This document shows positions 12,955-37,618 of a DNA stretch of 64,000 bases, one piece after another. This DNA is from Sphingomonadaceae bacterium (GTDB taxonomy: Bacteria > Chloroflexota > UBA6077): positions 1-64,000 of the forward strand of contig JBLNDL010000096.1 in assembly GCA_050261575.1 (NCBI GenBank), written 5' to 3'. The translations under genes were made by a program, and so were the position numbers. How positions within the stretch are numbered: the first letter of the stretch is position 1; the number at the start of each line of letters is the position of its first letter. The notes under the pieces were generated by a model. The model made no database searches and was not told where the DNA came from. It saw only the letters and a program-made list of their open reading frames with translations.

Positions 12955-12976
12955 TATAATGGCAACCGGTTTCCAT
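12955..12976 (+). promoter_or_regulatory. -10 box (TATAAT) directly followed by LacI-type operator 1
   Basis: ATGGCAACCGGTTTCCAT at 12959-12976, a near-perfect palindrome with central CG, upstream of the acyl-CoA dehydrogenase operon. Confidence 0.8.
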
Positions 12977-13069
12977 CCCACGGATCTCGCCGCGGGAGAC
13001 ACGACGGGGTGCTCTCCCCGCCAGTGACTTACCATAACGTACCTCGAACATCAAGGAGGATCGGCTGCC

Positions 13070-14224
13070 ATGGACTTCCACCCCACCGAAGTAGAACTGA
13101 TGATCCGCGAGACCGCTCGACAGTTCGCCATCGAGCACGTGGAGCCGAGGGCCAAGGAGATCGACGAGAAGGATGAGTTCTTCCACGATCTCATCGAAAT
13201 CGCTGGTGACCTGGGCCTGCTGGGAATGGAACTGCCGGAGTCCGAGGGCGGCGCCGCCTGCGGCACGCTCGCGGCGGTGATGAGCGGCGAGGAGATCGGC
13301 AGAGTGAGCGCGGCCGTCTGCAACGTCATCGGCGCCATCCGGCTGCACGTGAACCTTCTCAGCAAGTTTGGCACCCCCGCCCAAAAGGAGAAGTGGTTGG
13401 AGGTTCTCTGCAGCGGTCGCAAGATCGGCGGCTTCGCCATAACGGAGCCGGGTGCCGGATCCGACGTCGCCAGCCTCAAGACCGTCGCCGTGCGAAAGGG
13501 CGACAAGTGGGTGATCAACGGCCAGAAGATCTTCATCACCCTCGCCCCCGTCTCCGACATGATGATCGTCCTCACCTCCACCGATCCCTCCAAGGGCAGT
13601 CGCGGCCAGACCTGCTTCATCGTCGAGAAGGACGCACCTGGCCTGAAGGTGGGTCCCAAGGAGCCCATGATGGGCCAGCACGGGGTGCCGGTCAGCCAGG
13701 TCTTCTTCGATGACTGCGAGGTGCCCGCCGAGAACATGTTCGGCCAGGAGGGCCAGGGCTTCAAGATCATGATGGCGGGGTTGGACGGCACCCGACTGGA
13801 CATCGCCGCCCTCTCGCTCGGTCTGTCTCAGGCGGCCTTCGAGATGGCCGCCGCCTACGCTGCAACCAGGGAGCAGTTCGGCCAGCCCATAGGCAACTTC
13901 CAGGGTGTCGGCTTCATGCTGGCCGAGATGGCCACCGAGATAGACGCCGGCAGGCTGCTGCTCTATCGTGCGGCGCGGATGCGGGACGAGGGTGTACCGT
14001 TCACCAAGGAAGCGTCTATGGCCAAGTACTATTGCGCCGACAACGCCATGAAGCACACCACCAACGCGGTCCAGATCTTCGGCGGCTACGGCTACAGCAA
14101 GGAGTATCCACTAGAGAGGTTCATGCGGGACACCAAGGTCTGCCAGATCTACGACGGTACCTCGCAGATCCACCGGATGATCATCGCCCGACAGATCCTC
14201 AAGGAGTACAAGGAGCGGGCGTAG
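13070..14224 (+). CDS. Acyl-CoA dehydrogenase family protein
   Basis: FAITEPGAGSD, INGQKIFIT, REQFGQPI, QIFGGYGY and QIYDGTSQI; AAGGAGG RBS. Confidence 0.95.
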   Translation: MDFHPTEVELMIRETARQFAIEHVEPRAKEIDEKDEFFHDLIEIAGDLGLLGMELPESEGGAACGTLAAVMSGEEIGRVSAAVCNVIGAIRLHVNLLSKFGTPAQKEKWLEVLCSGRKIGGFAITEPGAGSDVASLKTVAVRKGDKWVINGQKIFITLAPVSDMMIVLTSTDPSKGSRGQTCFIVEKDAPGLKVGPKEPMMGQHGVPVSQVFFDDCEVPAENMFGQEGQGFKIMMAGLDGTRLDIAALSLGLSQAAFEMAAAYAATREQFGQPIGNFQGVGFMLAEMATEIDAGRLLLYRAARMRDEGVPFTKEASMAKYYCADNAMKHTTNAVQIFGGYGYSKEYPLERFMRDTKVCQIYDGTSQIHRMIIARQILKEYKERA

Positions 14225-14275
14225 CGCGTCAACGAAAGAGACTGAAGGTACTCGCTAGGGGAGGCGGATCTCAAC

Positions 14276-15850
14276 ATGGCAAAGGTCATCGATTACGCCG
14301 AGGCGGCTGCCCTGATTCCCGATGGGGCCACCGTCTGGGTTGGTGGATCGGGCGGTGGACACACCGTCCCCGAAAAACTGCTCAAGGGGCTGGAGGAGCG
14401 CTTCCTATCCACAGGCAGCCCCACTGGTCTCAACATCATCAGCGCCATTGGCATTGGCGACTTCAAAGAGACCGGGCTGGGTCTGCTGGCTCACCCCGGT
14501 CTCGTCAACCGGTGCGTCACCGGCACCTTCAGCAACTCGCCCAAGCTGGGGAAGCTGGCGGTGCAGGGCGAGATCGAAGCCTACACCTTCCCCATGGGCG
14601 TTCTGTCTCAGTTGTCGCGAGAGATGGCTGCCGGCCGTCCAGGACTGATCACCCACGTGGGGCTGCACAGCTTCGTGGATCCCCGGCTGGAGGGCGGGCG
14701 CCAGGGCCCCCGACGGGGCCCGGACCTGGTCGAGGTGGTGCAGTTGGCCGGTCGCGAGTGGCTCTTCTTCAAGTCCCACGACCTGGACGTGGCGCTCATT
14801 CGGGCCACCACCGCCGACGAGAAGGGCAACCTCACGATGGAGAAGGAGCCCGTCTACGCAGAGAACATCTCCGTGGCGCAGGCAGCGCATCGCAGGGGTG
14901 GGATTGTGATCGCCCAGGTGGAGAGGCTGGCCGCGGCCGGCACCCTTCCTGGCAAGCAGGTGAAGGTACCCGGGATTCTGGTCGATTACGTGGTCGTCGA
15001 CCCGGACCCGTGGCAGACCTACGTAACGAAGTACGATCCGGCCTATGCGGGGGAGGTGCGCAGGCCGAATGCGGAGATCCCCGTCTTGCCACTGGACGTG
15101 CGGAAGGTGGTGGCCAGGCGGGCTGCCATGGAGCTCCGACCGGGGGCGGTGGTCAACCTGGGCTTCGGCATAGCCAATGGGATCGCCTTCGTAGCCGCCG
15201 AGGAAGGGATCTACCAGGACGTGACCCTCACCGTCGAGCAGGGACTCATCGGCGGTGTGCCCGCCCTGGGCAACGATGCCGGCGCGGCGGTGAACTTCGA
15301 AGCCATGATCGACACCCCCTACCAGTTCGACTTCTACGATGGCGGGGGGTTGGACCTCGCCTTCCTCTCCTTCGCCGAGGTCGATGCCCAAGGCAACGTG
15401 AACGTCAGCAAGTTCCGCGACAACATCACTGGACCCGGTGGGTTCACCAACATCGCGCAGAACGCGAAGCGGGTGTTCTTCCTGGGCACCTTGACGGCCG
15501 GAAAGCCGGAGCTGAAGCTGACTGAGCGTGGGCTCCAGGTCGTAAGGGAGGGGAGCGTCCGGAAGTTCGTGCCCGAGGTCCAGCAGGTGACGTGGTCGGG
15601 ACCATTCGCGCAGCAACAGGGCCAGCCAGCTAGGTTCATCACCGAGCGAGCGGTGTTCGATCTCACCTCCGACGGAATGGTACTCGTGGAGGTTGCCGAG
15701 GGTATCGATATCCGACGTGATGTGCTCGAGCAGGTGCCTTTCCCGATACTGGTCCCGAGAGAACCGGCGCTAATGGATCCCCGCATCTTCTCTCCTGAGC
15801 CCATGCGGCTCAGGGAGGATCCGATCTGGAAGGAGGGAGGCCGGCGGTGA
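14276..15850 (+). CDS. Family I acyl-CoA:acetate CoA-transferase (fused alpha/beta, YdiF/Pct type)
   Basis: THVGLHSFVDPR, VNLGFGI, catalytic VEQG, QFDFYDGGGLD and GNVNVSKF. Confidence 0.92.
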   Translation: MAKVIDYAEAAALIPDGATVWVGGSGGGHTVPEKLLKGLEERFLSTGSPTGLNIISAIGIGDFKETGLGLLAHPGLVNRCVTGTFSNSPKLGKLAVQGEIEAYTFPMGVLSQLSREMAAGRPGLITHVGLHSFVDPRLEGGRQGPRRGPDLVEVVQLAGREWLFFKSHDLDVALIRATTADEKGNLTMEKEPVYAENISVAQAAHRRGGIVIAQVERLAAAGTLPGKQVKVPGILVDYVVVDPDPWQTYVTKYDPAYAGEVRRPNAEIPVLPLDVRKVVARRAAMELRPGAVVNLGFGIANGIAFVAAEEGIYQDVTLTVEQGLIGGVPALGNDAGAAVNFEAMIDTPYQFDFYDGGGLDLAFLSFAEVDAQGNVNVSKFRDNITGPGGFTNIAQNAKRVFFLGTLTAGKPELKLTERGLQVVREGSVRKFVPEVQQVTWSGPFAQQQGQPARFITERAVFDLTSDGMVLVEVAEGIDIRRDVLEQVPFPILVPREPALMDPRIFSPEPMRLREDPIWKEGGRR

Positions 15851-16629
15851 GAGAGCGGGTGAACTGGACCCTGGAGGAGGGCGTTGCGACCCTGGTGCTG
15901 GACAACCCGCCAGTCAACGTGGTGACGCTTCAACTCACCCGTGAACTGGGCGAATGCCTGTCGGAGCTCGCCACGGATTCGGCGGTTCGGGTCGTCGTCG
16001 TGACTGGGGCGGGCAGCAAGGCGTTCTGCGCGGGATCCGACATCAAGGAGTTCCAGGACCTAATGGATCCGGCGGTGGTCATCGACAAGAAGATGGCCAA
16101 GGAGAATCTGGTCTACGATGCCCTCGATCGCTTCCCCAAGCCGACGATCGCGGCCATCAACGGGCTCGCGCTGGGTGGGGGAGCCGAGCTTGCTCTCTGC
16201 TGTGATCTCCGTGTCATGGACGAGAACAGCAAGATTGGCTTTCCGGAGTGCAAGCTGGGGGTCTTCCCTGGCAGCGGCGGTACCCAGCGATTGCCGCGGT
16301 TGGTAGGAGAGGCGCTTGCCAAGGAGTTGATGTATATCGGAGACCCGATCGGAGCCCAGCGGGCGTACGAGATCGGCCTGGTCAACCGGATCGCGCCGGC
16401 CGGACAGGCGCTCGCGGTGGCTCGCGAGCTGGCTGCCACCATGGCCCAGCGGTCTGGGGTTGCCCTGGAGTGCATCAAACAGGCGGTGGACTACGGGTTG
16501 ACTGCCGGCTTCGCCGAGGGGCAGGCACTAGCACTTCAGCTTACCGGCCGGGTGTTCGGCAGCGAGGACATCAAGGAGGGGGTGCGAGCTTTCCTGGAGA
16601 AGCGAGCGCCTCGATTCGAGCACAGGTAG
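15847..16629 (+). CDS. Enoyl-CoA hydratase/isomerase (crotonase family)
   Basis: FCAGSDI, GGGAEL and FPECKLG (both catalytic Glu present), GGTQRLPRLVG. Confidence 0.93.
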   Translation: MRERVNWTLEEGVATLVLDNPPVNVVTLQLTRELGECLSELATDSAVRVVVVTGAGSKAFCAGSDIKEFQDLMDPAVVIDKKMAKENLVYDALDRFPKPTIAAINGLALGGGAELALCCDLRVMDENSKIGFPECKLGVFPGSGGTQRLPRLVGEALAKELMYIGDPIGAQRAYEIGLVNRIAPAGQALAVARELAATMAQRSGVALECIKQAVDYGLTAGFAEGQALALQLTGRVFGSEDIKEGVRAFLEKRAPRFEHR

Positions 16630-16643
16630 GGGCGTGGCGAACC

Positions 16644-17390
16644 GTGGGTGAATGGCAAGACAGGGTAGTGCTGGTCACTGGCGGCAACTCGGGCATGGGG
16701 CTGGCGACGGCCAGGCTGTTCGCAGCCGAGGGCGCCAGGGTTGCGGCCGGAGATCTGGATCTCGGAACGGTGCGTTCTCTCCAATCCGAGCGGGTGACGG
16801 GGTTCGCCCTGGACGTCGGCGACGAGAGATCGGTGGCTGCCTGCGTCGAGCGCGTGGAAGCGGAGTTGGGTCCCATCGCCGTGTTGGTCAATTGCGCCGG
16901 CATCACGGTGCTGGCCGACGCTCCGCACACCAGCGTCGAGGATCTCGATCGTGTGCTGGGGGTTAACCTCAAGGGTGTCTTCCTGACCTGCAAGCACGTG
17001 ATCCCGTTGATGGCGAAACGGGGGGGCGGTGCCATCGTCAACGTGGCATCCCACGCCGGTCTCGTCGGCATGCGCCAGAGGGCCGCCTACTGCGCCTCCA
17101 AGGGGGGTGTGGTGGCGTTGACCAAGGCCCTAGCTTTGGACCACGTAGCGCAAGGGATCCGAGTGAACGCTGTCTGTCCTGGCACCACCGATACCCCTTG
17201 GATGGAGAGGGTGGCCCAGGCGGCTCCCGATCCGGAGGAGGCGAGGCGGCAGTTTGCCGCGCGGCAGCCTATGGGGCGCATGGGCCGTCCGGAGGAGATC
17301 GCCAACGCGATCGAGTTCCTGGCATCGAGCCGAGCCTCGTTCATCACCGGCACGACGTTGCTGGTGGACGGAGGCTGGACCGCGGAGTAG
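16644..17390 (+). CDS. SDR family NAD(P)-dependent oxidoreductase
   Basis: TGGNSGMG, YCASK, IRVNAVCPG and VDGG; GTG start at 16644. Confidence 0.92.
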   Translation: MGEWQDRVVLVTGGNSGMGLATARLFAAEGARVAAGDLDLGTVRSLQSERVTGFALDVGDERSVAACVERVEAELGPIAVLVNCAGITVLADAPHTSVEDLDRVLGVNLKGVFLTCKHVIPLMAKRGGGAIVNVASHAGLVGMRQRAAYCASKGGVVALTKALALDHVAQGIRVNAVCPGTTDTPWMERVAQAAPDPEEARRQFAARQPMGRMGRPEEIANAIEFLASSRASFITGTTLLVDGGWTAE

Positions 17391-17644: not shown

Positions 17645-18523
17645 TCAGTGTTGCCTCGCTCTGCGCAGGGCCTCGTCCATCACTTTGACGTCGGGGTCCA
17701 CTCCGGTCCAGAACTTGAAGGCATCCACCGCCTGGTACAGCAGCATCTCGTGGCCGCTCACCGCCTTCGAGCCTCCCCTCTCCGCCAGTTGGAGGAGGCG
17801 GGTCTTTGGAGGCATGTAGATCATGTCCGCCACGCCGCAGGTGGCAGGTATCTCCACCCCCTCGGGTAAGGGACACTGCTGGTCGTTCGGGTGCATGCCG
17901 ACGCTGGTGGTGTTGACCAGGAGGTCGGCGTCGCCGATCTCGGCGGCGATCCTCTCGCGTTCCAGCGGCAGAGCCCGCCAGCGGCCCTCCCCCCTGAAGG
18001 GGGCGAGCGATTCGAGCAACTCTTCGGAGCGGCGCGGAGTACGATTGAAGACGACCACCTCTCTGGACACCTGGCCGAGGGCGTAGAGCGCGGCCCTCGC
18101 GGCTCCACCCGCACCCAGCATCAGGGCCTTCATCCCCTTCTTGTACAGCCCGTTGATTTCGAGCATTCGACGGAAGCCTGTGGCGTCGGTGTTGGTCCCT
18201 ATCCACTTTCCGTCGCGGTTCGCCACCGTGTTCACCGCCCCGATGGCGCGAGCCTCCTCGGTGAGGCCGTCCAGCAGCGGGATGACGGTTTCCTTGTGGG
18301 GGGCAGTCAGCGTGATACCCGCGAAGTTCACCGCCCTCAGGCCGCGCACGGCTACCTCGATGTCCTCTGGACGAACCTCCAGCGCGAGGTAGCAGTAGTC
18401 TAGGCCCGCGGCGGCGAAGGCCGCATTGTGGATGACGGGGGAAAGGGAGTGGTGCACCGGGTAGCCGAGAATGGCGATAGCCTGAGTGGATCCCGTAATC
18501 CTATCCAAATCTTGGTGTCTCAA
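17645..18523 (-). CDS. aroE: Shikimate/quinate dehydrogenase (AroE/YdiB family)
   Basis: GYPVHHSLSP, TAPHKE, IGAVNT, GTNTD, GAGGAARA, NTTSVGM and MLLYQA. Confidence 0.9.
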   Translation of the reverse strand: MRHQDLDRITGSTQAIAILGYPVHHSLSPVIHNAAFAAAGLDYCYLALEVRPEDIEVAVRGLRAVNFAGITLTAPHKETVIPLLDGLTEEARAIGAVNTVANRDGKWIGTNTDATGFRRMLEINGLYKKGMKALMLGAGGAARAALYALGQVSREVVVFNRTPRRSEELLESLAPFRGEGRWRALPLERERIAAEIGDADLLVNTTSVGMHPNDQQCPLPEGVEIPATCGVADMIYMPPKTRLLQLAERGGSKAVSGHEMLLYQAVDAFKFWTGVDPDVKVMDEALRRARQH

Positions 18524-18619: not shown

Positions 18620-19363
18620 TCAGTACTTGCCGCCGTCGACGAAGATGGTCTGTCCCGCAATGAAGGCAGCGTACTCGGAGGCCAGGAAGGCAGCCAACCC
18701 GGCCACGTCGCTCGGACGGCCGATTCTCCCCACGGGGGCAGGGGCTCGGAGTCTGGCCTGGACCTCCTGCGGCAATCCGGCGATCATTTCGGTTTCGGTC
18801 ACCCCAGGGGCGATGGCGTTGACCCTGATCCCGTAGGGGGCGAGATCCTTGCCCAGGGACCGAGTGAAACCCTGGACGCCCGCCTTGCTGGCGGCGTAGG
18901 CGGGACCGGAGCCACCCCCGGTGGAGATGACGTTGGAGGCGACGTTGATTATGGCGCCGCCCCCGTGCTCCTTCATGAACCTTGCCGCCGGACGGGTGAC
19001 GTTGTACATGGATGTCAGGTTGGTTGCGATGATACGATGCCACACCTCGGGCGACATGTCGAGTATGTTGTGCGGCGGGATGTTTATCCCGGCGTTGTTG
19101 ACCAGCACATCCAGCGCTCCGAAGTGTGCTGTCACCCTCTCGACCGTCCCCTCCGCAGCCTCGTAGTCGGACACGTCGGCTTTGAAGAGGGCGACCTCGG
19201 CTCCCACGTCCCGCATCTCCTTCGCCAGTGCTTCCGCAGCCTGGTCGTTGCGCGCGTAGTTTACCGCCACTCGGGCGCCCAACTGGCCAAACAGCAGTGA
19301 GATGCCCTTCCCGATCCCCCTGGCACCGCCGGTGACCAACACCACTTTGCCGTCGAAACGCAT
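18620..19363 (-). CDS. SDR family oxidoreductase (FabG-like)
   Basis: TGGARGIG, NNAG, YAASK and VNAIAPG; AAGGGAG RBS before ATG 19363. Confidence 0.9.
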   Translation of the reverse strand: MRFDGKVVLVTGGARGIGKGISLLFGQLGARVAVNYARNDQAAEALAKEMRDVGAEVALFKADVSDYEAAEGTVERVTAHFGALDVLVNNAGINIPPHNILDMSPEVWHRIIATNLTSMYNVTRPAARFMKEHGGGAIINVASNVISTGGGSGPAYAASKAGVQGFTRSLGKDLAPYGIRVNAIAPGVTETEMIAGLPQEVQARLRAPAPVGRIGRPSDVAGLAAFLASEYAAFIAGQTIFVDGGKY

Positions 19364-19397: not shown

Positions 19398-20681
19398 TTA
19401 TCCCTCGTAGCCGAACATCCTCGGGATGAACAGAGTGACATCCGGCAGGTAGGTGATGACCAACAGCGTCAGGATCAGCGCGGCGAAGAAGGGTAGCAGA
19501 TACTTGAAGACCTCTTCTATGGTGGTCTTCCCGATACTCGCCGCGACGTACAGGACGACGCCCACCGGTGGCGTGACCAGACCGATGCCCAGGTTTGCCA
19601 CCAGGACCGTACCGAAGTGGATCTCGTCGATGCCCAACTGCTTGGCCACCGGAAGGAGGATCGGCACCAGGATGATGACGGCGGGGGTCGGGTCCATGAT
19701 GCAGCCAACAAACAGGAACAGGATGTTCACGAGGAACAGGAACACTATTGGGCTCGAAGAGATCGACAGCATCCCCTCGGTCACCATTTGGGGTATCCTC
19801 TGCGAGGCCACCACCCAGGCGAAGGTGGAAGACATGCCCACCAGCAGCATGACGATCCCCGTGAGCTTGGCCGAGGTGACCAGTATGCCGGGAAGATCTC
19901 GGAGGTGCAGTTCGCGATAGATCAGCAGAGAGAGGACCGCGCTGTAGGCCACGGCGACGATAGCCCCTTCGGTAGGGGTGAAGGCGCCGGCCCTGATGCC
20001 GCCCAGGACCATCACCGGCATCAGGAGGGGGGGTATGGCGGAGATGGCGGCGCTGGCTATCTGCCCGCACGAAGCTTTCGGCTCCATAGGAAGATCGTAG
20101 TGGCGGGCCATAAAGTACATCACCACCATCATCGCTACGCCCATCATCCCCGCCGGCAGGAAACCGGCGAAGAAGAGGTGACCGATGGACACGTTGGCCA
20201 CCACGCCGAAGATGATCATGGTGATGGCGGGTGGGATCAGGATCGCGAAGCCACCGGAGGCAGCTACCACCGCGGTCGCCAGGCCTCTAGCGTAGCCCTT
20301 CTTGGTCATCTCGGGGATCATGATGGAGCCGATGGCGGCGGTGTCTGCGGCGGACGAGCCCGACAGTCCCGAGAACAGCATGGTGGAGAGCACGACCACC
20401 ATGCCGAGGCCGCCTCGGATGTGGCCGACCAGCACGCTGGCTAGCCGGATGAGGCGGGCGGAGATCCCTCCCGTCTCCATGAGGCCGCCCGCCAGGATGA
20501 AGAAGGGCACGGCCAGCAGCGGAAAGGAGTCCAGTCCGGTGAACATCCTCTGCGCGAGGATCGTGACGGGGATCCCGCCCTTGTAGACCAGGGCCGCCAG
20601 GGAGGAGAGCCCTAGTGCATAAGAGACGGGCACAGCGAACAACAGTAGAAGAACGAAGGTCGCGAAAAGCACAGTAGCCAT
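19398..20681 (-). CDS. dctM: TRAP transporter large permease
   Basis: DSFPLLAVPFFILAG, SGSSAADTAA and IGLVTPPVG. Confidence 0.95.
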   Translation of the reverse strand: MATVLFATFVLLLLFAVPVSYALGLSSLAALVYKGGIPVTILAQRMFTGLDSFPLLAVPFFILAGGLMETGGISARLIRLASVLVGHIRGGLGMVVVLSTMLFSGLSGSSAADTAAIGSIMIPEMTKKGYARGLATAVVAASGGFAILIPPAITMIIFGVVANVSIGHLFFAGFLPAGMMGVAMMVVMYFMARHYDLPMEPKASCGQIASAAISAIPPLLMPVMVLGGIRAGAFTPTEGAIVAVAYSAVLSLLIYRELHLRDLPGILVTSAKLTGIVMLLVGMSSTFAWVVASQRIPQMVTEGMLSISSSPIVFLFLVNILFLFVGCIMDPTPAVIILVPILLPVAKQLGIDEIHFGTVLVANLGIGLVTPPVGVVLYVAASIGKTTIEEVFKYLLPFFAALILTLLVITYLPDVTLFIPRMFGYEG

Positions 20682-20692
20682 ATCGGCACCCC

Positions 20693-21208
20693 CTAATCCG
20701 CCACCATGGGCCCCGAAGGCTCACCGGCGGAGGCTCCTTGACCGCTCTTTCCCGTCCAGTGCAATACCAAGTCGGCCCAGGTGAAGTAGAGCATCAGGAG
20801 CCCACTGATCGGGATGACCAGGTAGGGGATGCTCATAACGAGTCCGAGGGCTGGCGATTCCTGGTTTCGGTTGAGGAGGACCAGCATCCACCCCTCGGTG
20901 ATCATGATGTAGAAAATGTAGCTGCCGCCCAGGGCGATCAGGACCCGCACCACCTCGCGGACTTTCCGCGGGAACCGATCCACCGCCATAGTGATGGCGA
21001 AATGCGCCCTGTCTTTCACACCAAGTGCTGCTCCCAGCAGCGCCACCCAAATGAACAGAAAACGAGCGCCCTCCTCCGCCCAGGCCAGCGGCATGTACAA
21101 GAAGTAGCGGAAGACAACCTGCAAGAAGACCACGACGGAAGCTATCACCAGCAGAGTCCCAGCGGTGAATGCGGTAATGAAGGCCAGGAAATCGGTTAAC
21201 CTTCTGAT
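20693..21208 (-). CDS. dctQ: TRAP transporter small permease (start uncertain; best RBS precedes an ATC codon)
   Basis: QVVFRY, WAEEGARFLFIW, HFAI and SPALG motifs with 4 TM helices; AAGGAGG lies 6 nt before ATC 21208. Confidence 0.85.
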   Translation of the reverse strand: MRRLTDFLAFITAFTAGTLLVIASVVVFLQVVFRYFLYMPLAWAEEGARFLFIWVALLGAALGVKDRAHFAITMAVDRFPRKVREVVRVLIALGGSYIFYIMITEGWMLVLLNRNQESPALGLVMSIPYLVIPISGLLMLYFTWADLVLHWTGKSGQGASAGEPSGPMVAD

Positions 21209-29419: not shown

Positions 29420-29794
29420 GTGGATCTCGTCCGATTGCAGGACGTCGAAGGCACCCGCTTCCCGGCCGGCCGCTGGACCCGTCTGCTCGTTGGGCAGGGC
29501 GCTCTCCAAGCCGAAAACTTCGTCATTGGCCACTCCACCCAGTCCCCTGGAGGAGGTATCCCTCGCCACGCCCACCACAACGAGGAGGTCTACCTCTGCC
29601 TGGCCGGCCGCGTGGAGGTCACCGTTGGCGAGGAGACCCAGATCATGGAGCCGGTCAGCGCGGTCTACATTCCTTCCAACGTTCCTCATTCCCTGCGCAA
29701 CCTGGCAGATGGTGAGAGCGTGATCCTCTTCGTGTACTCGCCAGCCGGCCTGGTGGACCACTGGCAGGAGGAGTTGGAGGGCACGCTCAAGTAG
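29420..29794 (+). CDS. Cupin domain protein
   Basis: HAHHNEE...IPSNVPH metal-binding cupin motifs; GGAGG RBS. Confidence 0.9.
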   Translation: MDLVRLQDVEGTRFPAGRWTRLLVGQGALQAENFVIGHSTQSPGGGIPRHAHHNEEVYLCLAGRVEVTVGEETQIMEPVSAVYIPSNVPHSLRNLADGESVILFVYSPAGLVDHWQEELEGTLK

Positions 29795-32482: not shown

Positions 32483-33283
32483 GTGCATATCGTCGTGTGC
32501 GTCAACCACATCCCCGATCCTGAGGCTCCCGCGAAGCAGTTCAAGTTGGACGAGCAGACCAACCGGCCGATGCTGCAGCGGGTGAATCGGGTTGTCGGGC
32601 CGTTCGACGAGAACGCCCTGGAAACCGGCCTGCGTCTCAAGGACGGTGTGGGGGCGAAGGTGACTGCCCTTTCCGTGGGGCCTGCGACCAACGTGGAGGC
32701 CCTGCGCAGGGCGATGGCGACGCGCAGCGATGCTGCCGTCCACGTGAAGGAGGAAGGCGCCACCGAGCTGGACTCCGCCGGTGTGGCCCGGTTGCTGAGC
32801 GCGGCCATCCGGAAGCTGGGAGACGTGACCCTGGTGCTGTGCGGTCGCCAGGTGGGTGACTGGGACAGTGGCCAGGTGGGTCAGTTGGTGGCGGAGGAGT
32901 TGGGGTTGCCCTGCGTTACCCTGGCCCGGCAGATCCAGCCGGCCGAAGACGGGGTCGTACGGATCGAGCGGGAGGTCCCGGGTGGGATCGCTGTGGTGGA
33001 GGTGGACCTGCCGGCGGTGGTGACGGTGACGAACGCCCCCACAAACCAGTTGCGCATCCCGAAGGTGAAGGACGTCATGGCAGCCCATCGGGCGCCGATC
33101 ACCACCTGGACGGCGGCCGATCTGGGCCTGGGCGTGGCCGACCTGTTGGGCGAGGCGCGCGTTCAGGTGCGTCGCATGTTCGTCCCCGAGAGTCAGGTCC
33201 AGGTAGAGTTGATCAAGGGGGAGACCGACGAAGAGGTGGCCGAGACTCTGGCCCGGCGCATTCTAGGTATGAAGGTCCTGTAA
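32483..33283 (+). CDS. etfB: Electron transfer flavoprotein beta subunit
   Basis: IVVCVNHIPD, FDENALE, LCGRQVGDWDSGQVG and LPAVVTV. Confidence 0.93.
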   Translation: MHIVVCVNHIPDPEAPAKQFKLDEQTNRPMLQRVNRVVGPFDENALETGLRLKDGVGAKVTALSVGPATNVEALRRAMATRSDAAVHVKEEGATELDSAGVARLLSAAIRKLGDVTLVLCGRQVGDWDSGQVGQLVAEELGLPCVTLARQIQPAEDGVVRIEREVPGGIAVVEVDLPAVVTVTNAPTNQLRIPKVKDVMAAHRAPITTWTAADLGLGVADLLGEARVQVRRMFVPESQVQVELIKGETDEEVAETLARRILGMKVL

Positions 33284-33295
33284 TAGGGGGTCGCC

Positions 33296-34270
33296 ATGGA
33301 TTTCCTGATAGTGGCATTGCCAGCCGGGGCGCGGCTTCCGTCAGCCTCGGCGGAACTGATAGGCGGGGCCAAGGGCCTCGCTTCCTCCGGCGGAACTGTG
33401 TCGGTCGCAGTCCTGGGGAGGGATCTGGACGACGCCTGCCGCGATGCCGTGTCCTTCGGGGCCGACAGGGTGTACCGGATGGACGCGCCGCACCTGGCCG
33501 ATTTCGACTCGGAGGCATACCTCCAGGCGCTCGAGGTCGCCGTCAAAGAGATCGGACCTGGCGCGGTGCTCTTTCCTTCCGACGCCTTCGCCGCCGAGCT
33601 TGCCCCGCGGCTGGCCTACCGCCTGGGCACCGGGGTAGCGTCCGGATGCACTTCCATCACCTGGTCGGACGATGGCCGGTTGCTGTTCGGCTGCCCCGTC
33701 TACGGTGGAAAGGCGATGGCCGAGGTCGTCGTGACGGGCTCACCAAGTATCGCGACCGTGGCGGGCGGCAGCTTTCAGCCGTTGCCCCGAGACGATGCCA
33801 GGCGGGCGGAGATCGTGTCGTTGGCCGCCCCCGCGCCCGCTGCGCGCCGCGCCAGGACCCTCGAGGTGCGACCCGAGGAGGTCCAGGGTGTCCGATTGGA
33901 GGATGCCAGGGTAATCGTGACCGGGGGGCGCGGGCTCGGGGATGCCGCGGGTTTCCAGTGCGTGGAGGAGCTTGCCGCGGTGTTGGGAGCGGCCGTAGGC
34001 GCCTCGCGACCGGCCGTGGATGCCGGCTGGGTGCCAGCTAGCCTGCAGATCGGCCAAACTGGCAAGACGGTCTCTCCCGAGCTCTACATCGCCGTGGGCG
34101 TCTCAGGGGCAAGCCAGCATCTGGCGGGGATGGGGCGCTCCAAGCACGTGATCGTGATCAACAAGGACCCCGAGGCTCCCTTCTTCAAAGCTGCGGAGTT
34201 GGGGGTGGTGGCGGACTACCGGAAGGTGGTGCCGCTCCTGACGCAGAAGCTGAAGGCACTGCTCGGCTGA
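33296..34270 (+). CDS. etfA: Electron transfer flavoprotein alpha subunit
   Basis: GGRG, GASRPAVDAGW, QIGQTGKTVSPELYIAVGVSGASQHLAGM and INKDPEAP. Confidence 0.95.
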   Translation: MDFLIVALPAGARLPSASAELIGGAKGLASSGGTVSVAVLGRDLDDACRDAVSFGADRVYRMDAPHLADFDSEAYLQALEVAVKEIGPGAVLFPSDAFAAELAPRLAYRLGTGVASGCTSITWSDDGRLLFGCPVYGGKAMAEVVVTGSPSIATVAGGSFQPLPRDDARRAEIVSLAAPAPAARRARTLEVRPEEVQGVRLEDARVIVTGGRGLGDAAGFQCVEELAAVLGAAVGASRPAVDAGWVPASLQIGQTGKTVSPELYIAVGVSGASQHLAGMGRSKHVIVINKDPEAPFFKAAELGVVADYRKVVPLLTQKLKALLG

Positions 34271-34364: not shown

Positions 34365-36416
34365 TCAGTCGCTGCTGGCGGGCCGAGTGGCCTGCTCCAG
34401 CAGCTCGGCCACGTCCAGCACGGGCACCTCGCGTTCGCCACCCCGCATCTTCACCCCGTCGGACAGCATGATCATGCAGAAGGGGCAGGAGCTGGCAATT
34501 GCCGCGGGGGAGAGCGCCAGCGCCTGGTCGGCCCGCGCGTAGTTGATCCTCTTGCCCTCTGCCTCCTCGAACCACAGGTGCCCTCCGCCAGCGCCGCAGC
34601 AGAAGGTCTCCTCTCGGCTTCTCGGCATCTCCAGCAGATCGAGACCATCCATCGCACTCAGGATCTCGCGTGGCGGATCGGCGATGCCGTTGTAGCGAGC
34701 CAGGTAGCAGGAGTCGTGGAAGGTGACGCTCTCGACCGTGGCGGCGGTGGGTCGAAGCTTGCCCTCCTTGAGCAATCGTGCCAGCAGCTCGGTGTGGTGG
34801 TAGACCTCGAAGCTGCCGCCGAACTGTGGGTACTCGTTCTTGAGGGTGTTGAAGCAGTGGGGGCAGGTGGTGACGATCTTCTTGACCCCGTAGCGGTTGA
34901 GCGTCTCCACGTTGGCCTGTGCCATCATCTGGAAGAGGTACTCGTTGCCGATGCGGCGGGCCACATCGCCCGTGCACTGCTCCTCTTCACCCAGGATCGC
35001 GAAGTCGACCCCCGCGCGCTGCAGCAGCCGTGCGAAGGCTTTTGCCACCCGCTGGTTGCGGTCGTCGAAGGCGGCGGCGCACCCCACCCAGTAGAGCCAC
35101 TCGGCGGGCCCCGCTTCCCCCACGATCTTGACGCCGAGCCCCTCGCACCAGTCGGTGCGGGAGGCCATCGTTCCCCTGAAGGGATGCCCCCTGGCCTCCA
35201 TGCTGCCGAGGGCCTCCTGCATCAGCTCGGGATACTCCGCACGCTCCATCACCAGGTAGCGGCGCAGGTCCACGATGGTCGGCACGTGCTCAACGAAGAT
35301 GGGGCATTGCTGCATGCAGCTTCCGCAGGTCACGCAGCTCCACAGCGCCTCGGGGGTCACTGCTGCGATGGTGGGGCATTCCTCCATGCCCTCACGGGCG
35401 GCATCCGGAGGGCTCTTGCGAGCGAGGGAGAGGGCCGCCGCGGGGCGCCTGGACCGGTAGAGTTGGTTGCGGAGATCGAGGATCAACGCCTTCGGCGAAA
35501 GGGGCTGGCCGGTGCTGTAGGCAGGGCATGCCGCCTGGCATCGGCCGCACTCCGTGCAGGCGAGGCAATCCAGCAACTGCTTCCAGGTGAGGTCCTCGAG
35601 CTTCGGGGTCCCCAGGGTCTCGGCCGACTCGATGTCGATCGGCTTGAGGGCGCCCATCGGCTGGAGAGAGCGGAAGTAGATGTTGGCCGGGGAGAGCACG
35701 AGGTGGCGCAGCTTCGAGTAAGGGATGTAGGCGATGAATGCGAAGGCGATCAGCAGGTGGAACCACCAGAGGAAACGATGGGCTTCCTGCAGCGATCGCA
35801 CGTCGAAGCCGAGGCCGGTTAGGGCTGATCCCACGGCGAGGCCGACGGGGGACCAGGCGGCCCAGGGGTCGGAGGTGGCGACGATGCGGATGCCTTCCAC
35901 GACGAAGCCGGTTATCAGGATGGCGAGGATGAGGCCGAGCACCACCCCATCGTCCAAGAGGGTGCGGTGGCGAGGGGGGTTGAGGAGCCTATCCGGGCGG
36001 AGGAGGTGTCTCTTGATGATCGCCATCAGCACGCCGACGATGGCCAGCAGCCCGAGGACGTCCAGAGCGAGGGACTGGAAGTAGAGGTAGAACGGTCCAT
36101 GCATGATCTGGAGCCCGAGGTCGGCCTGCAGGAAGACCACGACGGTTCCGAGGAAGAGGACCGCGAAGCCCCAGAAGAAGAGGAGGTGCATCACTCCAGA
36201 GTATCTGTCCCTGAGGCTTCGTATCTGCGCGAGGCCGTGCAAGAGCACACCGGTCCTCCGCTCACCTGGGCGGTCGAAACGGTTCTCGGCTTTCCCCAAG
36301 GCCAGGAGACGGTAGTGCTGGTAGGCTCCGTAGCCGAACACCGCAAGTGTGAGGCCGAAGAGGGCGTACATGATCCAGATGCCCTGGATGTTCCAGTAGA
36401 TCTCGCGGGTTTCCAA
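34365..36416 (-). CDS. Membrane-anchored Fe-S oxidoreductase (FadF/DUF224/EMO type; putative ETF:quinone oxidoreductase)
   Basis: N-terminal cytochrome-b-like TM domain with His residues (VMHLL, WWFHLL, KLRH); CTECGRCQAACP and CVTCGSCMQQCP; CCG domains (TTCPHC, FHDSC, FCCGAGGG, CPFC). Confidence 0.88.
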   Translation of the reverse strand: METREIYWNIQGIWIMYALFGLTLAVFGYGAYQHYRLLALGKAENRFDRPGERRTGVLLHGLAQIRSLRDRYSGVMHLLFFWGFAVLFLGTVVVFLQADLGLQIMHGPFYLYFQSLALDVLGLLAIVGVLMAIIKRHLLRPDRLLNPPRHRTLLDDGVVLGLILAILITGFVVEGIRIVATSDPWAAWSPVGLAVGSALTGLGFDVRSLQEAHRFLWWFHLLIAFAFIAYIPYSKLRHLVLSPANIYFRSLQPMGALKPIDIESAETLGTPKLEDLTWKQLLDCLACTECGRCQAACPAYSTGQPLSPKALILDLRNQLYRSRRPAAALSLARKSPPDAAREGMEECPTIAAVTPEALWSCVTCGSCMQQCPIFVEHVPTIVDLRRYLVMERAEYPELMQEALGSMEARGHPFRGTMASRTDWCEGLGVKIVGEAGPAEWLYWVGCAAAFDDRNQRVAKAFARLLQRAGVDFAILGEEEQCTGDVARRIGNEYLFQMMAQANVETLNRYGVKKIVTTCPHCFNTLKNEYPQFGGSFEVYHHTELLARLLKEGKLRPTAATVESVTFHDSCYLARYNGIADPPREILSAMDGLDLLEMPRSREETFCCGAGGGHLWFEEAEGKRINYARADQALALSPAAIASSCPFCMIMLSDGVKMRGGEREVPVLDVAELLEQATRPASSD

Positions 36417-36514
36417 GCTGTATCACGCTCCCTGTAGGTTTCTCTTAGCCGTTGCCGTGTATCGGCGCGGCAGTCGGCTTCCGGCAGAGGCGTGCCCCCC
36501 TCAGGCCTCTGGCC

Positions 36515-37516
36515 TTACGTCGTGGTCACGGTGGATTCTCGCACCACCAGCCGGCCCTGGACGAGGACCGACGTGCGCTCCCCATCTCGGCTCTTGAGCT
36601 CGCGGAGGAGCATCTCCGTCGCCATCTTGCCGATCTGGCGCAGGGAGAAATGGATGGTGCTGAGGGGCGGATCCGTCTGTTCGGCTCCGGCGATGCCGTT
36701 GAACCCTATGACGGCCAGATCCCTCGGGACACAGATCCCCATCTGGTGGGCCTCGCGGAGGACGCCCATTGCCATAGCGTCGTTGGCGACGAATATGGCC
36801 TGAGGAGGGGAGGGGTTGTCCCAGAGCCGCCTGAGAGCCGCGGCACCTCCCTCGAAGGTGAAGTCGCTCTCCACGACGAGCGACTCATCCACCGGCAGCC
36901 CGTGCTCTGCCATGGCCTGTCTGAACCCAAGCAGGCGGTCTGTCGCGGTGGCAGAGGCGAGGGGACCGGTGATGTGGGCGATCCTTCGGTGGCCGAGGCT
37001 GATGAGGTGCTCGGTGGCATCGATGGCCCCGCGGACGTTGTCGATCTGGACGCAGGAGCAGGGGATCTCGTGGCGGCCGATGACGACGACCGGCGCCGGG
37101 TGGCTGACGAGGTCCGCGAGGTGGGCCTCGCGGTCGACGCCGCCGCCGGTGAGGATGATGCCCGCGCGCATCGCGCGCAACTCCTCGACGTACTTGCGCT
37201 CCTTGTCTGGGATGCGGTCGGTGTTGCAGAGGACGACCATGTAGCCTTCCTGGCTGGCGACGTCCTCGGTGCCGCGTGCGATCTCGACGAAGTAGGGGTC
37301 ACGGATGTCTGGGATCATCAGTCCGACGATGCGGAACTCTCGCTTGGAGAGGCCTCTGGCGAAGGCATTGGGAGTGAAGTCGAGCTCCTCGGCTGCCTGG
37401 AGGACGCGCTTGCGTACCCCCGCGGCGACAGGGTGGTCGCTGCCGCTGAGGACGCGTGAAGCGGTGGTAATGGAAACGCCTGCTCGTTGCGCGACGTCCC
37501 GAAGGGTAGGATTCAT
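36515..37516 (-). CDS. LacI family transcriptional regulator
   Basis: TLRDVAQRAGVSITTASRVLS HTH, PNAFARGL hinge, NDAMAMG and VPRDLAVIGF. Confidence 0.95.
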   Translation of the reverse strand: MNPTLRDVAQRAGVSITTASRVLSGSDHPVAAGVRKRVLQAAEELDFTPNAFARGLSKREFRIVGLMIPDIRDPYFVEIARGTEDVASQEGYMVVLCNTDRIPDKERKYVEELRAMRAGIILTGGGVDREAHLADLVSHPAPVVVIGRHEIPCSCVQIDNVRGAIDATEHLISLGHRRIAHITGPLASATATDRLLGFRQAMAEHGLPVDESLVVESDFTFEGGAAALRRLWDNPSPPQAIFVANDAMAMGVLREAHQMGICVPRDLAVIGFNGIAGAEQTDPPLSTIHFSLRQIGKMATEMLLRELKSRDGERTSVLVQGRLVVRESTVTTT

Positions 37517-37575
37517 CTCGGCTCCTCTGAGGTGGTGTGGCTGGAGCGCCGCGGGTGGGGCTTCCCCTGTAGCCA

Positions 37576-37618
37576 CGGCAACCGGTTGCCGGAAACCGTT
37601 TGCCATGCTATTCTAGCA
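37576..37618 (-). promoter_or_regulatory. Tandem LacI operators 5 and 6 immediately downstream of an extended -10 of the lacI gene
   Basis: CGGCAACCGGTTGCCG (37576-37591) and GGAAACCGTTTGCC (37591-37604); TGcTAGAAT on the minus strand at 37618-37610. Confidence 0.8.

Follow-up and report, generated by a model that had tools for sequence, protein, structure and literature searches.

A LacI-type regulon of a Chloroflexota bacterium predicted to link the import of an acidic, sugar-like compound to CoA chemistry

The stretch of DNA analysed here (the window; 64 kb of contig JBLNDL010000096.1) carries an island of around 25 genes that reads as the regulon of a single LacI-family repressor for the import and breakdown of an acidic, sugar-like ring compound (Table 1). 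The island is hallmarked by a 14-bp palindrome, GGAAACCGGTTTCC, that occurs six times in the window at up to two mismatches, always at island promoters and, as read from the sequence, immediately downstream of a -10-like box or a short way past it. Only 0.22 sites would be expected in the window, and none of 100 shuffles reached six. The strict form GGMAACCGGTTKCC is found at five places in the 3.72-Mb genome, every one of them inside the island, and its reversed control pattern has no occurrence across the same 3.72 Mb. With up to two mismatches, the whole genome holds 20 sites, of which the 14 outside the island are scattered over 13 other contigs and match the chance number of ca. 13 extrapolated from the rate in the window. 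The tandem sites in the lacI leader suggest autoregulation. An earlier note had placed five transcription units under one shared operator, which these sites bear out, though five should be taken as a minimum since the 10.6-kb minus-strand operon has intergenic gaps of ca. 100 to 175 bp, long enough for internal promoters.

Table 1. Genes and operators of the island and its surroundings (operators match GGAAACCGGTTTCC at up to two mismatches; G002, genome of the sister genus)
Feature	Position	Strand	Basis and remarks
Tungsten-type aldehyde:ferredoxin oxidoreductase (AOR)	9775..11655	-	Pfam AFOR_N + AFOR_C; downstream of Zn-ADH
Zn-dependent alcohol dehydrogenase (Zn-ADH)	11762..12853	-	Pfam ADH_N + ADH_zinc_N; divergent from ACAD operon
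Operator O1 (GGCAACCGGTTTCC)	12961..12974		directly after TATAAT box; common to divergent ADH and ACAD promoters; kept in G002 (L174 4984-4997)
Acyl-CoA dehydrogenase (ACAD)	13070..14224	+	Pfam
YdiF/Pct-type family I CoA-transferase 1	14276..15850	+	Pfam CoA_trans
Crotonase-family enoyl-CoA hydratase	15847..16629	+	Pfam ECH_1
SDR oxidoreductase 1	16640..17390 (start approximate)	+	Pfam adh_short from residue 139 of ORF 16248-17390
AroE-type shikimate dehydrogenase, island-specific paralogue	17645..18523	-	above cut-off of NF001319, NF001314, TIGR00507
SDR oxidoreductase 2	18620..19363 (start approximate)	-	Pfam adh_short
TRAP system 2: DctM2, DctQ2, DctP3 (21299-22378), DctP2 (22496-23587)	19398..23587	-	Pfam
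GH88-like protein, large orphan family	23685..25076	-	distant from solved unsaturated glucuronyl hydrolases
TRAP system 1: DctM1, DctQ1, DctP1	25184..28268	-	Pfam DctM, DctQ, DctP, TAT_signal; twin-arginine signal of DctP1 from N-terminus read
Operator O2, perfect palindrome	28443..28456		just downstream of TTGACA-17-TATTAT promoter of long minus-strand operon; kept in G002 (L172 1540)
MaoC-type (R)-hydratase 1 (MaoC1), monocistronic	28530..28958	-	Pfam; catalytic GD..P.H stretch present
Operator O3	29004..29017		upstream of maoC1; kept in G002 (L172 2102)
Operator O4, perfect palindrome	29327..29340		just downstream of TTGACA-17-TATCAT promoter of cupin operon; kept in G002 (L172 2379)
Small single-domain cupin	29420..29794	+	Pfam Cupin_2
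MaoC2	29864-30304	+	Pfam; GD..P.H stretch kept
YdiF-type CoA-transferase 2	30321-31931	+	Pfam; PDB 2ahu (YdiF) E=1.9e-163
MaoC3	32017-32472	+	Pfam; GD..P.H stretch kept
Electron-transfer flavoprotein EtfB + EtfA	32483..34270	+	Pfam ETF, ETF_alpha
EtfD/EMO-type membrane Fe-S oxidoreductase	34365..36416	-	Pfam Nitrate_red_gam-like N-terminus (NarI-like TM), Fer4 (4Fe-4S), 2x CCG; one operon with lacI
LacI-family repressor	36515..37516	-	Pfam LacI + Peripla_BP_3; true start MNPTLRDVA... read from sequence
Operators O5 + O6, tandem (starts 37577, 37591)	37577..37604		lacI leader, after TAGAAT box; kept in G002 (L173 13322)
KDG-type kinase, neighbour	37887-38919	+	own TTGACA/TACCAT promoter
KDPG/KHG aldolase fused to glyoxalase-like domain, neighbour	39015-40037	+	above its NCBIfam cut-off

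Pfam and NCBIfam searches confirmed most of the gene list of the earlier note, with four corrections that concern the GH88-like protein, AroE, the Zn-ADH/AOR pair, and the KDG kinase with the KDPG aldolase. The best NCBIfam models of the ACAD all stay below their cut-offs (acryloyl-CoA reductase AcrC, 421 bits against 640; cyclohexane-1-carbonyl-CoA dehydrogenase, 336 against 650), as do the AcrA/AcrB partners that are the best or near-best models of the Etf subunits. The two CoA-transferases share 52% identity, and the match of the second to 2ahu confirms the kinship with YdiF that had been claimed for them. All three MaoC proteins retain the catalytic Asp/His stretch, and MaoC1 is the MaoC that accompanies the CoA-transferase in other lineages.

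The EtfD-type protein has a 36% identical paralogue on contig C95 beside a second ACAD-Etf set; this separate, generic array (two ACADs, EtfBA, EtfD, and a crotonase) argues that the set in the island is a dedicated one. No thiolase was found in the island by Pfam search, so its enzymes do not form a full beta-oxidation set. It is very improbable that the locus is an ordinary beta-oxidation cluster for fatty or short-chain acids that merely adjoins sugar-acid transport genes. While such clusters are typically built from the families seen here (ACAD, crotonase, SDR, EtfBA, EtfD-type protein) and YdiF-type transferases occur in very varied contexts (80 loci, mostly without other island genes), the absent thiolase and the C95 set speak against it, as does the single operator that ties all units together. 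The MaoC-CoA-transferase-Etf operon, moreover, opens with a cupin of the kind that travels with the GH88-like family (a ca. 42% identical cupin at 18 of 80 loci), and the adjacency of GH88-like and CoA-transferase genes is seen again in other lineages.

The GH88-like reading frame matches no Pfam or NCBIfam model at E<=0.001, Pfam GH88 included, and a relative reaches 20.2 bits against the Pfam GH88 cut-off of 26.6. Compared with solved unsaturated glucuronyl hydrolases, the protein matches 1vd5 at E=1.2e-12 and the family profile gives E=8.7e-19; the invariant HDHGF of the family aligns with HHDIGF of 1vd5, and the Asp of HDxGF is kept. DctP2 and DctP3 are 67.6% identical, both with lipoprotein-like N-termini, and find their best solved relative in 4x8r (E=4.6e-63 and 6.5e-65, respectively), with a further match to 4n8y. 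PMC11668362 describes these structures as glucuronate-bound and galacturonate-bound, respectively, and warns that many crystallised TRAP ligands were co-purified; a uronate ligand for the DctP proteins would be a weak assignment at ca. 40% similarity. The 25 best models for SDR2 do not mark it as KduD-like, and nothing named KdgF is found among the 34 solved matches of the cupin. The island AroE, the sole PF08501 match in the genome, groups in the tree with the G002 island copy (support 93/92) and shares 67-70% identity with the one AroE present in island-free relatives. It is of canonical type and may have a biosynthetic role, either as its sole function or next to one in the island.

A regulon of these families exists and is kept in one sister genus, as far as sequence comparison goes. 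The G002 genome carries the CoA core in two copies, unit 1 as ACAD-CoA-transferase-crotonase, and the palindrome at matching promoters (three sites at L172, four at L173, one at L174); its second island copy adjoins genes of the altronate/galactarate-dehydratase and FAH families. The combination of families described in the earlier note is kept in this genus and recurs in partial sets elsewhere. Conservation is narrow: a search of 41 related genomes found homologues of the CoA-transferase in 4, and a search of 401 genomes of the phylum found homologues of MaoC1 in 11. Neighbours of the GH88-like family at 80 loci include SDRs (57), GFO/IDH/MocA proteins (43), xylose-isomerase-like TIM barrels (26), KDPG aldolases (18), small cupins (16), and PfkB kinases (8). 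Of the 80 loci retained for the GH88-like family, only 2 carry a CoA-transferase, which makes the coupling rare. The adjacency of a GH88-like gene, a YdiF-type CoA-transferase, and a hydratase was found in three separate lineages, two of them with an aldehyde-oxidising enzyme alongside: the family of our organism and G002; another Chloroflexota family (G204 and G260, with IclR, CoA-transferase, MaoC, ALDH, GH88-like, and GMC genes, plus PfkB and Eda at L204); and a Spirochaetaceae contig (L033, with GH88-like, CoA-transferase, and crotonase genes).

The promoter of the adjoining KDG kinase and KDPG aldolase carries no operator, and the two genes are treated here as neighbours of the regulon. 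A third TRAP-crotonase-CoA-transferase-MaoC module of the genome, on contig C103, comes after an 828-aa protein akin to oligo-alginate lyase, dermatan-sulfate epimerase, and heparinase II/III. Eight AOR paralogues in the genome and 2-oxoacid:ferredoxin oxidoreductases within the window mark the host as a predicted anaerobe.

We suggest, at a probability of about 45%, that an uncultured, anaerobic soil bacterium, probably a member of the Chloroflexota, uses this LacI-repressed regulon to break down a ring-shaped acidic carbohydrate from polyuronides. The most likely substrate is a uronate with a 4,5 double bond or the corresponding 5-keto-4-deoxyuronate. The evidence leans toward such a sugar acid over quinate or shikimate because of the uronate-type TRAP binding proteins, the GH88-like/CoA-transferase/hydratase adjacency, the lyase-like gene by the C103 module, the kinship of the GH88-like protein with unsaturated glucuronyl hydrolases and the neighbours of its family, the adjoining KDG kinase and KDPG aldolase, and the altronate/galactarate-dehydratase-family gene in G002. 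Import of the acid or acids would fall to the two TRAP systems and their three binding proteins, and the GH88-like enzyme would hydrate an enol-ether or enoate function; SDR2, the AroE paralogue, Zn-ADH, and AOR may adjust keto, hydroxyl, and aldehyde groups, with at least part of the carbon bypassing the textbook KduI/KduD route. A CoA thioester would then be made by the YdiF-type CoA-transferases, (de)hydrated by the MaoC and crotonase hydratases, and oxidised or reduced by the ACAD, which EtfBA and the EtfD-type protein would link to the quinone pool; that four (de)hydratases act one after another in dehydration, and which way the electrons run, are points of inference. Because a thiolase is absent, any cleavage of the carbon chain would require an aldol or retro-aldol step with an aldehyde product for AOR/ADH, or else the KDG kinase and KDPG aldolase next to the island. 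The ligand that releases LacI would be the substrate or an early intermediate.

The earlier note had proposed a CoA-dependent pathway for a sugar or cyclitol acid, of which the joining of TRAP, GH88-like, dehydrogenase, CoA-transferase, hydratase, ACAD, and Etf/EtfD genes in one regulon stands, whereas the substrate leans to the uronate side. Its statement that no characterised pathway has such a combination agrees with our literature searches, in which no paper describing the pathway or the gene combination was found; a little-studied sugar-acid enzyme would be coupled here to CoA chemistry in a combination that we found described nowhere.

Some points weigh against a uronate. We see no chemically compelling CoA route from 5-keto-4-deoxyuronate, and the missing Pfam GH88 and KdgF matches, the rarity of the GH88-like/CoA-transferase coupling, the weak TRAP ligand assignments, the character of SDR2, and the operator-free kinase and aldolase do not favour it. 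Furthermore, the canonical AroE in the island of both genomes and a metagenome locus, L081, point to hydroaromatic acids. At L081, a CoA-transferase (53%) and a MaoC1-like gene (50%) are set among two AroE/YdiB-like genes, dehydroquinases of both type I and type II, and a BaiCD-like flavoenzyme (ene-reductase), together with LysR, AraC, TRAP, two MFS, and ApbA-type reductase genes. This locus and the island AroE clade, which stays inside the operon in our genome and the G002 copy despite rearrangement, keep a cyclitol acid open as substrate. Shikimate or quinate would be imported by TRAP, AroE would interconvert shikimate and 3-dehydroshikimate, and the enoate would be CoA-activated, (de)hydrated by MaoC/crotonase, and subjected to redox chemistry by ACAD/ETF/EtfD, a route resembling cyclohexanecarboxyl-CoA formation or a Bad-type ring pathway. 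YdiF, to which the 2ahu match relates our transferases, is found together with YdiB and AroD in the ydi cluster of E. coli, and ACAD and SDR1 show sub-threshold matches to cyclohexane-carbonyl-CoA dehydrogenase, BadH, and 4-hydroxy-CHC dehydrogenase. Shikimate can also be seen as the carbocyclic counterpart of a 4,5-unsaturated uronate, so the uronate-like binding proteins would not exclude it. We nevertheless regard a hydroaromatic substrate as unlikely: AroE, as the only one of the genome and with its close counterparts in island-free relatives, may simply be biosynthetic, and the island contains no dehydroquinase (in the genome, type II lies on contig C14 with chorismate synthase and type I was not found). 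The GH88-like/CoA-transferase clusters of G204, G260, and L033 likewise have no AroE, just 1 of 80 CoA-transferase loci has one, all Bad/Ali model scores fall far under cut-off, and the GH88-like protein, cupin, and neighbouring KDG kinase/aldolase would be left with no role.

The NCBIfam ranking of ACAD and Etf subunits on Acr models could also mean that one repressor controls two pathways. The GH88-like protein, cupin, and SDR would yield a KDG-type product for the kinase and aldolase, and unit 1 with EtfBA/EtfD would form a reductive branch disposing of a 3-oxo or 3-hydroxy acid fragment, for example from 3-oxopropionate via 3-hydroxypropionyl-CoA, acryloyl-CoA, and propionyl-CoA to propionate, as proposed for Anaerostipes. 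Unit 1, an operon of its own whose first three genes are kept in G002, resembles in its gene families a set described in PMC8355322, where an oxcT-ecdH-acaD operon (Pct-type CoA-transferase, enoyl-CoA hydratase, dehydrogenase) and an acryloyl-CoA dehydrogenase/Etf complex are strongly induced by inositol. Such a division of labour seems quite improbable, however, since the Acr scores are all under cut-off, no aldolase yielding 3-oxopropionate is present (the one beside the island belongs to the KDPG/KHG type), CoA-transferase 2 and the three MaoC proteins would be left unexplained, and uronate fermentation should need no extra electron sink.

The Zn-ADH and AOR, absent from the gene list of the earlier note, use the first operator, which is overlapped by the -35-like TTGCCA of the Zn-ADH promoter. 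Zn-ADH is 82% identical to the gene at the same divergent position in G002. AOR starts 106 bp past it on the same strand and probably lies within the regulon, and an OYE-type gene takes its place in G002. Aldehyde-oxidising enzymes recur beside the CoA-transferase, as AOR in our genome and as ALDH at L203, L204, L086, and L151.

Pfam and NCBIfam searches bore out the gene list that the earlier note had read from the sequence of the island, a predicted LacI regulon, while its call of a GH88-like protein stood in part: the protein is related to solved UGLs (1vd5, E = 1.2e-12) but has no Pfam or NCBIfam match. The functions listed in the table are assigned from family membership and gene neighborhood. 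The window, with ca. 65% G+C, belongs to one contig of a 3.72-Mb genome (G000; 103 contigs in all), direct repeats within the island are paralogous genes only, and no Rfam element matched at gathering score within positions 9000-41000.

Genes and predicted operator copies (O1-O6) of the island, with its kinase and aldolase neighbors.
Feature	Position	Strand	Basis or context
Tungsten-type AOR	9775-11655		after Zn-ADH; absent from the earlier list
Zn-ADH	11762-12853		served by the divergent promoter at O1; absent from the earlier list
O1	12961		directly behind TATAAT; also overlaps a -35-like box of the divergent Zn-ADH/AOR promoter
ACAD, YdiF-type CoA-transferase, crotonase, SDR (unit 1)	13070-17390	+	Pfam/NCBIfam
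DctP1-DctQ1-DctM1, GH88-like, DctP2, DctP3, DctQ2-DctM2, SDR (SDR2), AroE	28268 back to 17645	-	Pfam/NCBIfam; GH88-like by sequence relation to solved UGLs
O2	28443		behind TTGACA-17-TATTAT
Lone MaoC gene (maoC1)	28530-28958	-	Pfam
O3	29004		ahead of maoC1
O4	29327		behind TTGACA-17-TATCAT
Cupin, MaoC2, CoA-transferase 2, MaoC3, EtfB, EtfA	29420-34270	+	Pfam
lacI, then membrane Fe-S protein (NarI-like part, 4Fe-4S motifs, two CCG)	37516 back to 34365	-	Pfam
O5 and O6, in tandem	lacI leader		behind TAGAAT
KDG-type kinase and KDPG/KHG aldolase fused to a glyoxalase-like domain	37887-40037		neighbors of the island

The repressor combines a Pfam LacI HTH at its N-terminus with a Peripla_BP_1 and Peripla_BP_3 effector domain, and its true start, read from the sequence, is MNPTLRDVA at 37516. 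Operators of the LacI/GalR family are typically palindromes with a central CG. At up to two mismatches, the palindrome GGAAACCGGTTTCC occurs six times in the window against 0.22 copies expected, and none of 100 shuffles gave six. Across the whole genome the same search returned 20 sites, the six of the island plus 14 scattered ones that approximate the number extrapolated from the chance rate, and the degenerate form GGMAACCGGTTKCC was found at five places, every one of them in the island. The proposal of the earlier note that all units share a single operator thus holds given this excess, the confinement of the latter form to the island, and the retention of the operator in the sister genus represented by genome G002.

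The Zn-ADH and AOR genes probably belong to the regulon. We left out the 2-oxoacid:ferredoxin oxidoreductase (OFOR) encoded at 6158-9288 because it lies behind a 487-bp gap after the AOR gene, has its own TATAAT box, and is without an operator; within this gap, a 98-aa ORF (9342-9638, - strand) of no assigned function follows an A+T-rich stretch. The PfkB-Eda pair likewise has its own promoter and no operator and is therefore kept as neighbors only. Its KDG-type kinase matches one half, the kinase part, of a fusion model with 528 bits, the cut-off of 700 being set for the whole fusion, and its aldolase scores 334.6 on the NCBIfam KDPG aldolase model (cut-off 275). This aldolase (39015-40037, + strand) carries a C-terminal glyoxalase/VOC-like domain at residues ca. 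241-336, an unusual fusion. Farther along, the MEP pathway genes ispG (GcpE), ispH (LytB), and dxs lie together at 46790-50774 as ordinary housekeeping genes, which marks the end of the catabolic neighborhood.

The regulon is narrowly distributed, and homologs of CoA-transferase 2 (E<=1e-50) were found in 4 of 41 related genomes including the window's own. The gene combination is nevertheless conserved in another of these genomes, G002 (a different genus of this family), which carries it in three pieces: (a) an orthologous stretch (64-97% identity) of DctQ1-DctP1 / MaoC1 / cupin-MaoC2-CoA-transferase 2-MaoC3; (b) a further copy, more divergent (61-87%), that reads GFO/IDH/MocA-MaoC-GH88-like-AroE-DctP / cupin-MaoC-CoA-transferase-MaoC-EtfBA / EtfD-LacI and continues with IclR, an altronate/galactarate-dehydratase-family gene, and a FAH-family gene; and (c) OYE with a Zn-ADH of 82% identity / ACAD-CoA-transferase 1-crotonase (84-85%), together with a TRAP system. 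Corresponding promoters carry 3, 4, and 1 operator sites in pieces (a), (b), and (c), respectively, which argues that the regulon is real and older than one species. The six operators of the window and their conservation in a second genus define the predicted LacI regulon sharply. On G002 contig C107 (loci L162/L172, ca. 3380-4987), the 90%-identical ortholog of CoA-transferase 2 holds one in-frame TAG, which may stem from a sequencing error, mark a pseudogene, or reflect recoding.

Among the uptake proteins, DctP2 and DctP3 are 67.6% identical, and for both the nearest solved relative is 4x8r, with a further match to 4n8y. Ligands of TRAP structures were checked for 4X8R, 4N8Y, and 7BBR; the accessible text of PMC11668362 gives 4x8r as glucuronate-bound and 4n8y as galacturonate-bound and itself warns that many such crystal ligands were co-purified. 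The two genes (dctP3/dctP2, 21299-23587) share up to 85-88% DNA identity over stretches of 300 and 112 nt and are a recent tandem duplicate, so that one membrane unit serves two binding proteins.

The GH88-like protein has no Pfam Glyco_hydro_88 match at gathering score, and a relative at locus L024 reaches 20.2 bits against the cut-off of 26.6. A profile of 23 family members, built after leaving out L062 (internal stop) and L056, matches the UGL structure 1vd5 with E = 8.7e-19. The catalytic aspartates of Bacillus UGL are D88 and D149; the invariant HDHGF of the family aligns with HHDIGF of 1vd5, and the stretch of the second aspartate lies outside the alignment. With 510 of 598 candidate stretches confirmed, this is an orphan family with hundreds of members across phyla. 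Neighbor counts cover the 80 top-ranking loci per scan, which for the GH88-like family span many phyla at 56-82% identity and feature SDR (57 loci), GFO/IDH/MocA (43), xylose-isomerase-like TIM barrel (26), KDPG aldolase (18), small cupin (16), and PfkB (8) genes. Two clusters lacking a Pfam hit, in 45 and 20 of these loci, were not counted as neighbors, and the representative of the 45-locus cluster is antisense inside the GH88-like gene. We dropped the name KdgF for the island cupin since none of its 34 solved relatives (E<=0.01) is so named, the best being BacB and generic Cupin_2 proteins.

CoA-transferase 2 is a family I enzyme of the YdiF type (E. coli YdiF, 2ahu, E = 1.9e-163 over residues 4-513). 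All three MaoC proteins, with the hot-dog MaoC domain, keep the Asp/His hydratase stretch (TGDFSPNH, SGDMSPLH, and TGDFSPIH) and fail to match a strict PROSITE-like pattern because S replaces N. Genes for a GH88-like protein, a YdiF-type transferase, and a hydratase also adjoin in other families: G204 and G260, two genomes of one genus in another Chloroflexota family, have the gene order IclR, CoA-transferase (54-55%), MaoC (45-46%), ALDH, a GH88-like gene (57%), and a GMC oxidoreductase, to which locus L204 adds PfkB and Eda, and a Spirochaetaceae contig (L033) has the gene order GH88-like, CoA-transferase, crotonase. In the metagenome loci L151 and L086, the transferase lies with sugar-type ABC transporters, SDR, MaoC or crotonase, and ALDH genes, together with LacI or IclR and either a KDG kinase with Eda or a glycerate kinase. 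An aldehyde-oxidizing enzyme accompanies the transferase repeatedly (AOR in the island; ALDH in L203, L204, L086, and L151). On contig C103 of G000, a third module (L175, 252-12402, - strand) encodes an 828-aa lyase-like protein, an 898-aa protein without a Pfam hit, DctPQM, a crotonase, a YdiF-type CoA-transferase (49%), and a MaoC1-like protein (64%). The 828-aa protein has oligo-alginate lyase (E = 7.4e-24), dermatan-sulfate epimerase, and heparinase II/III among its relatives. The module has no operator copy and thus stands outside this regulon. The DctP matches, the neighbors of GH88-like genes, the adjacency of GH88-like and transferase genes, the lyase-like protein of C103, and the L151 and L086 loci are evidence that leans toward a uronate-type sugar acid as the class of substrate.

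The island AroE scores above the cut-offs of three shikimate-dehydrogenase models and reaches 152 bits on the YdiB model, whose cut-off is 349. No other Shikimate_dh_N match occurs in G000, which carries chorismate synthase and type II dehydroquinase together on another contig and has no match to type I dehydroquinase (PF01487). In relatives lacking the island, a single AroE occurs in unrelated surroundings, with 67-70% identity to that of the island, and G002 has such a copy besides its island copy. Since the two island AroEs pair in a small tree (93/92) apart from the others, AroE was recruited into the island by duplication; the G000 enzyme may serve both roles, or a housekeeping copy may be unassembled. 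This island-specific clade, like the gene composition of E. coli ydi, favors the import of a hydroaromatic acid of the quinate/shikimate type, which the earlier note had put forward alongside a sugar acid. So does metagenome contig L081, where two AroE/YdiB-like genes, type I and type II dehydroquinases, a BaiCD-like flavoenzyme, and transporters of the MFS and TRAP kinds surround a MaoC1-like gene (50%) and a YdiF-type transferase (53%). Yet only 1 of the 80 best transferase loci has an AroE; we consider a hydroaromatic substrate of the island the less likely of the two readings. The quinate/shikimate-type cluster of L081 (2703-18793) is itself a candidate for a CoA-dependent hydroaromatic pathway; its AroE/YdiB-like genes score identically, it also encodes an ApbA-type reductase and a 126-aa protein without assigned function, and 12.1 kb of it gave no megablast match to E. 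coli genomes.

If the substrate is an unsaturated-uronate-type sugar acid, the TRAP systems would import it and the GH88-like enzyme would hydrate it, with SDR, the AroE paralog, Zn-ADH, and AOR adjusting keto, hydroxyl, and aldehyde groups. The two YdiF-type enzymes would then load the acid with CoA, MaoC1, MaoC2, MaoC3, and the crotonase would (de)hydrate the thioester, and an ACAD redox step would be linked to the quinone pool via EtfBA and the EtfD-type protein. As no thiolase domain was detected by Pfam in any island ORF scanned and AOR or ALDH recurs, the exit may be a cleavage of the hydratase/lyase type that yields an aldehyde, on the pattern of Fcs/Ech/Vdh in ferulate breakdown, or may run through the neighboring KDG kinase and aldolase. 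The main weakness of this explanation is that no compelling CoA route could be drawn from 5-keto-4-deoxyuronate.

For unit 1, a reductive branch from 3-oxopropionate to propionate is a fair alternative, with AcrC as the best NCBIfam model of its ACAD (421 bits, below the cut-off of 640). In the accessible text of PMC8355322, such a branch with OxcT, EcdH, AcaD, and AcaD-Etf is proposed for Anaerostipes. As far as that text goes, the two share a Pct/YdiF-type transferase, enoyl-CoA hydratase, dehydrogenase, and ACAD/Etf acting after a cyclitol or sugar pathway, a likeness at the level of gene families; the island has no iol genes, and its extra CoA-transferase, three MaoCs, EtfD, and GH88-like protein have no counterparts in the branch as described there.

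Shikimate can be viewed as a carbocyclic analog of a 4,5-unsaturated uronate, both having a ring of six members with three hydroxyls and a C=C bond that bears the carboxylate, a likeness that would reconcile the sugar-acid and hydroaromatic evidence. Such alpha,beta-unsaturated acids are typically CoA-activated before hydration or reduction. Anaerobic Chloroflexota and a few other lineages might load cyclic hydroxy-enoates, namely 4,5-unsaturated uronates and shikimate, with CoA by YdiF-type enzymes, hydrate them by MaoC or crotonase, and then either cleave them without thiolase, passing the aldehyde to AOR or ALDH, or reduce them via ACAD/EtfBA/EtfD; we give this doubtful route roughly one chance in four. 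If true, KduI/KduD would be joined by an alternative pathway that depends on CoA and is linked to quinone, and the orphan GH88-like family and YdiF-type clusters such as E. coli ydi would gain a function.

The classical UGL (GH88)/GH105-KduI-KduD-KdgK-Eda route has counterparts in the GH88-related enzyme of the island, its SDR, its uptake proteins of uronate type, and the adjoining kinase and aldolase. The island falls outside this route because the locus has no KduI (the sole PF04962 match of the genome lies on contig C63) and SDR2 is not KduD-like, with no KduD model among its 25 best. Its GH88-like protein is also outside Pfam GH88, uptake is by TRAP, the cupin is a single Cupin_2 domain, and the co-regulated CoA-transferase/hydratase/ACAD/ETF set of the island has no equivalent in the classical route. 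The likeness to E. coli ydi, which comprises ydiB-aroD-ydiF-ydiO-ydiQRST and is of unsettled function, stood for the ortholog-level YdiF match and for an AroE-family dehydrogenase, ACAD, and EtfBA-like genes in one neighborhood, but not for YdiB or AroD, whose absence sets the island apart from that cluster. The membrane partner of the island is moreover EtfD/CCG-type and not FixC/FixX-like, and three MaoCs, TRAP systems, the GH88-like protein, and LacI come in addition.

In working, the island is closest to CoA-transferase/hydratase/ACAD/ETF systems of the cai/fix type. The carnitine genes caiTABCDE/fixABCX handle a hydroxy-acid only as a transferase-recycled CoA thioester that is dehydrated and then reduced by an ETF-fed ACAD. 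The island follows the same logic and has matches to CaiA, CaiD, FixA, and FixB models, but all of these are below cut-off, the substrate class is another, and its transferases are of family I whereas CaiB is of family III. Bad/Ali and shikimate-derived cyclohexanecarboxyl-CoA formation are likewise based on CoA-level hydration and oxidation or reduction of a six-membered ring acid, but the island lies outside Bad/Ali because its scores are far below cut-off (TIGR03207, 247/575; NF043006, 336/650; BadH, 192/431); no ring-opening BadI-type enzyme was identified in it. Without a thiolase, it also differs from the beta-oxidation cycle. The membrane Fe-S protein, encoded convergently with etfA, has a weak Nitrate_red_gam match (E = 6.6e-4), Fer4 families, and two CCG domains. 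EtfD, or ETF:(methyl)menaquinone oxidoreductase, combines a NarI-like membrane part, 4Fe-4S, and two CCG domains, and the island protein has the same layout and a gene beside etfBA, though this gene shares its operon with lacI, which encodes the repressor of a carbohydrate-type regulon.

A limited literature search found no described pathway that matches the island, and the coupling of a GH88-like enzyme to CoA chemistry is undescribed as far as this literature shows. Judged from sequence, the island would represent a repressor-controlled type of acid-sugar catabolism with a well-defined regulon and a proposed chemistry. Among the major plant-derived carbon sources of soils are polyuronides (pectin, alginate, microbial exopolymers) and hydroaromatic acids. 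Anaerobic Chloroflexota are abundant and mostly uncultured. If real, the coupling would extend sugar-acid catabolism by a branch based on thioesters and linked to ETF and quinone, offer a testable function for the orphan GH88-like family, and give a lead on long-unexplained YdiF/ACAD/ETF clusters beside shikimate-dehydrogenase genes.

The only KduI/IolB-family gene of G000, on C63 (L206, 8922-14023), has an RraA-like aldolase and a tricarboxylate-type transporter (TctCBA) as its neighbors, apart from KduD and KdgK. G000 further encodes eight AOR paralogs with 31-55% identity on eight contigs, and the window holds two 2-oxoacid:ferredoxin oxidoreductase sets (6158-9288 and 60831-63609), which together indicate a ferredoxin-centered anaerobic metabolism.
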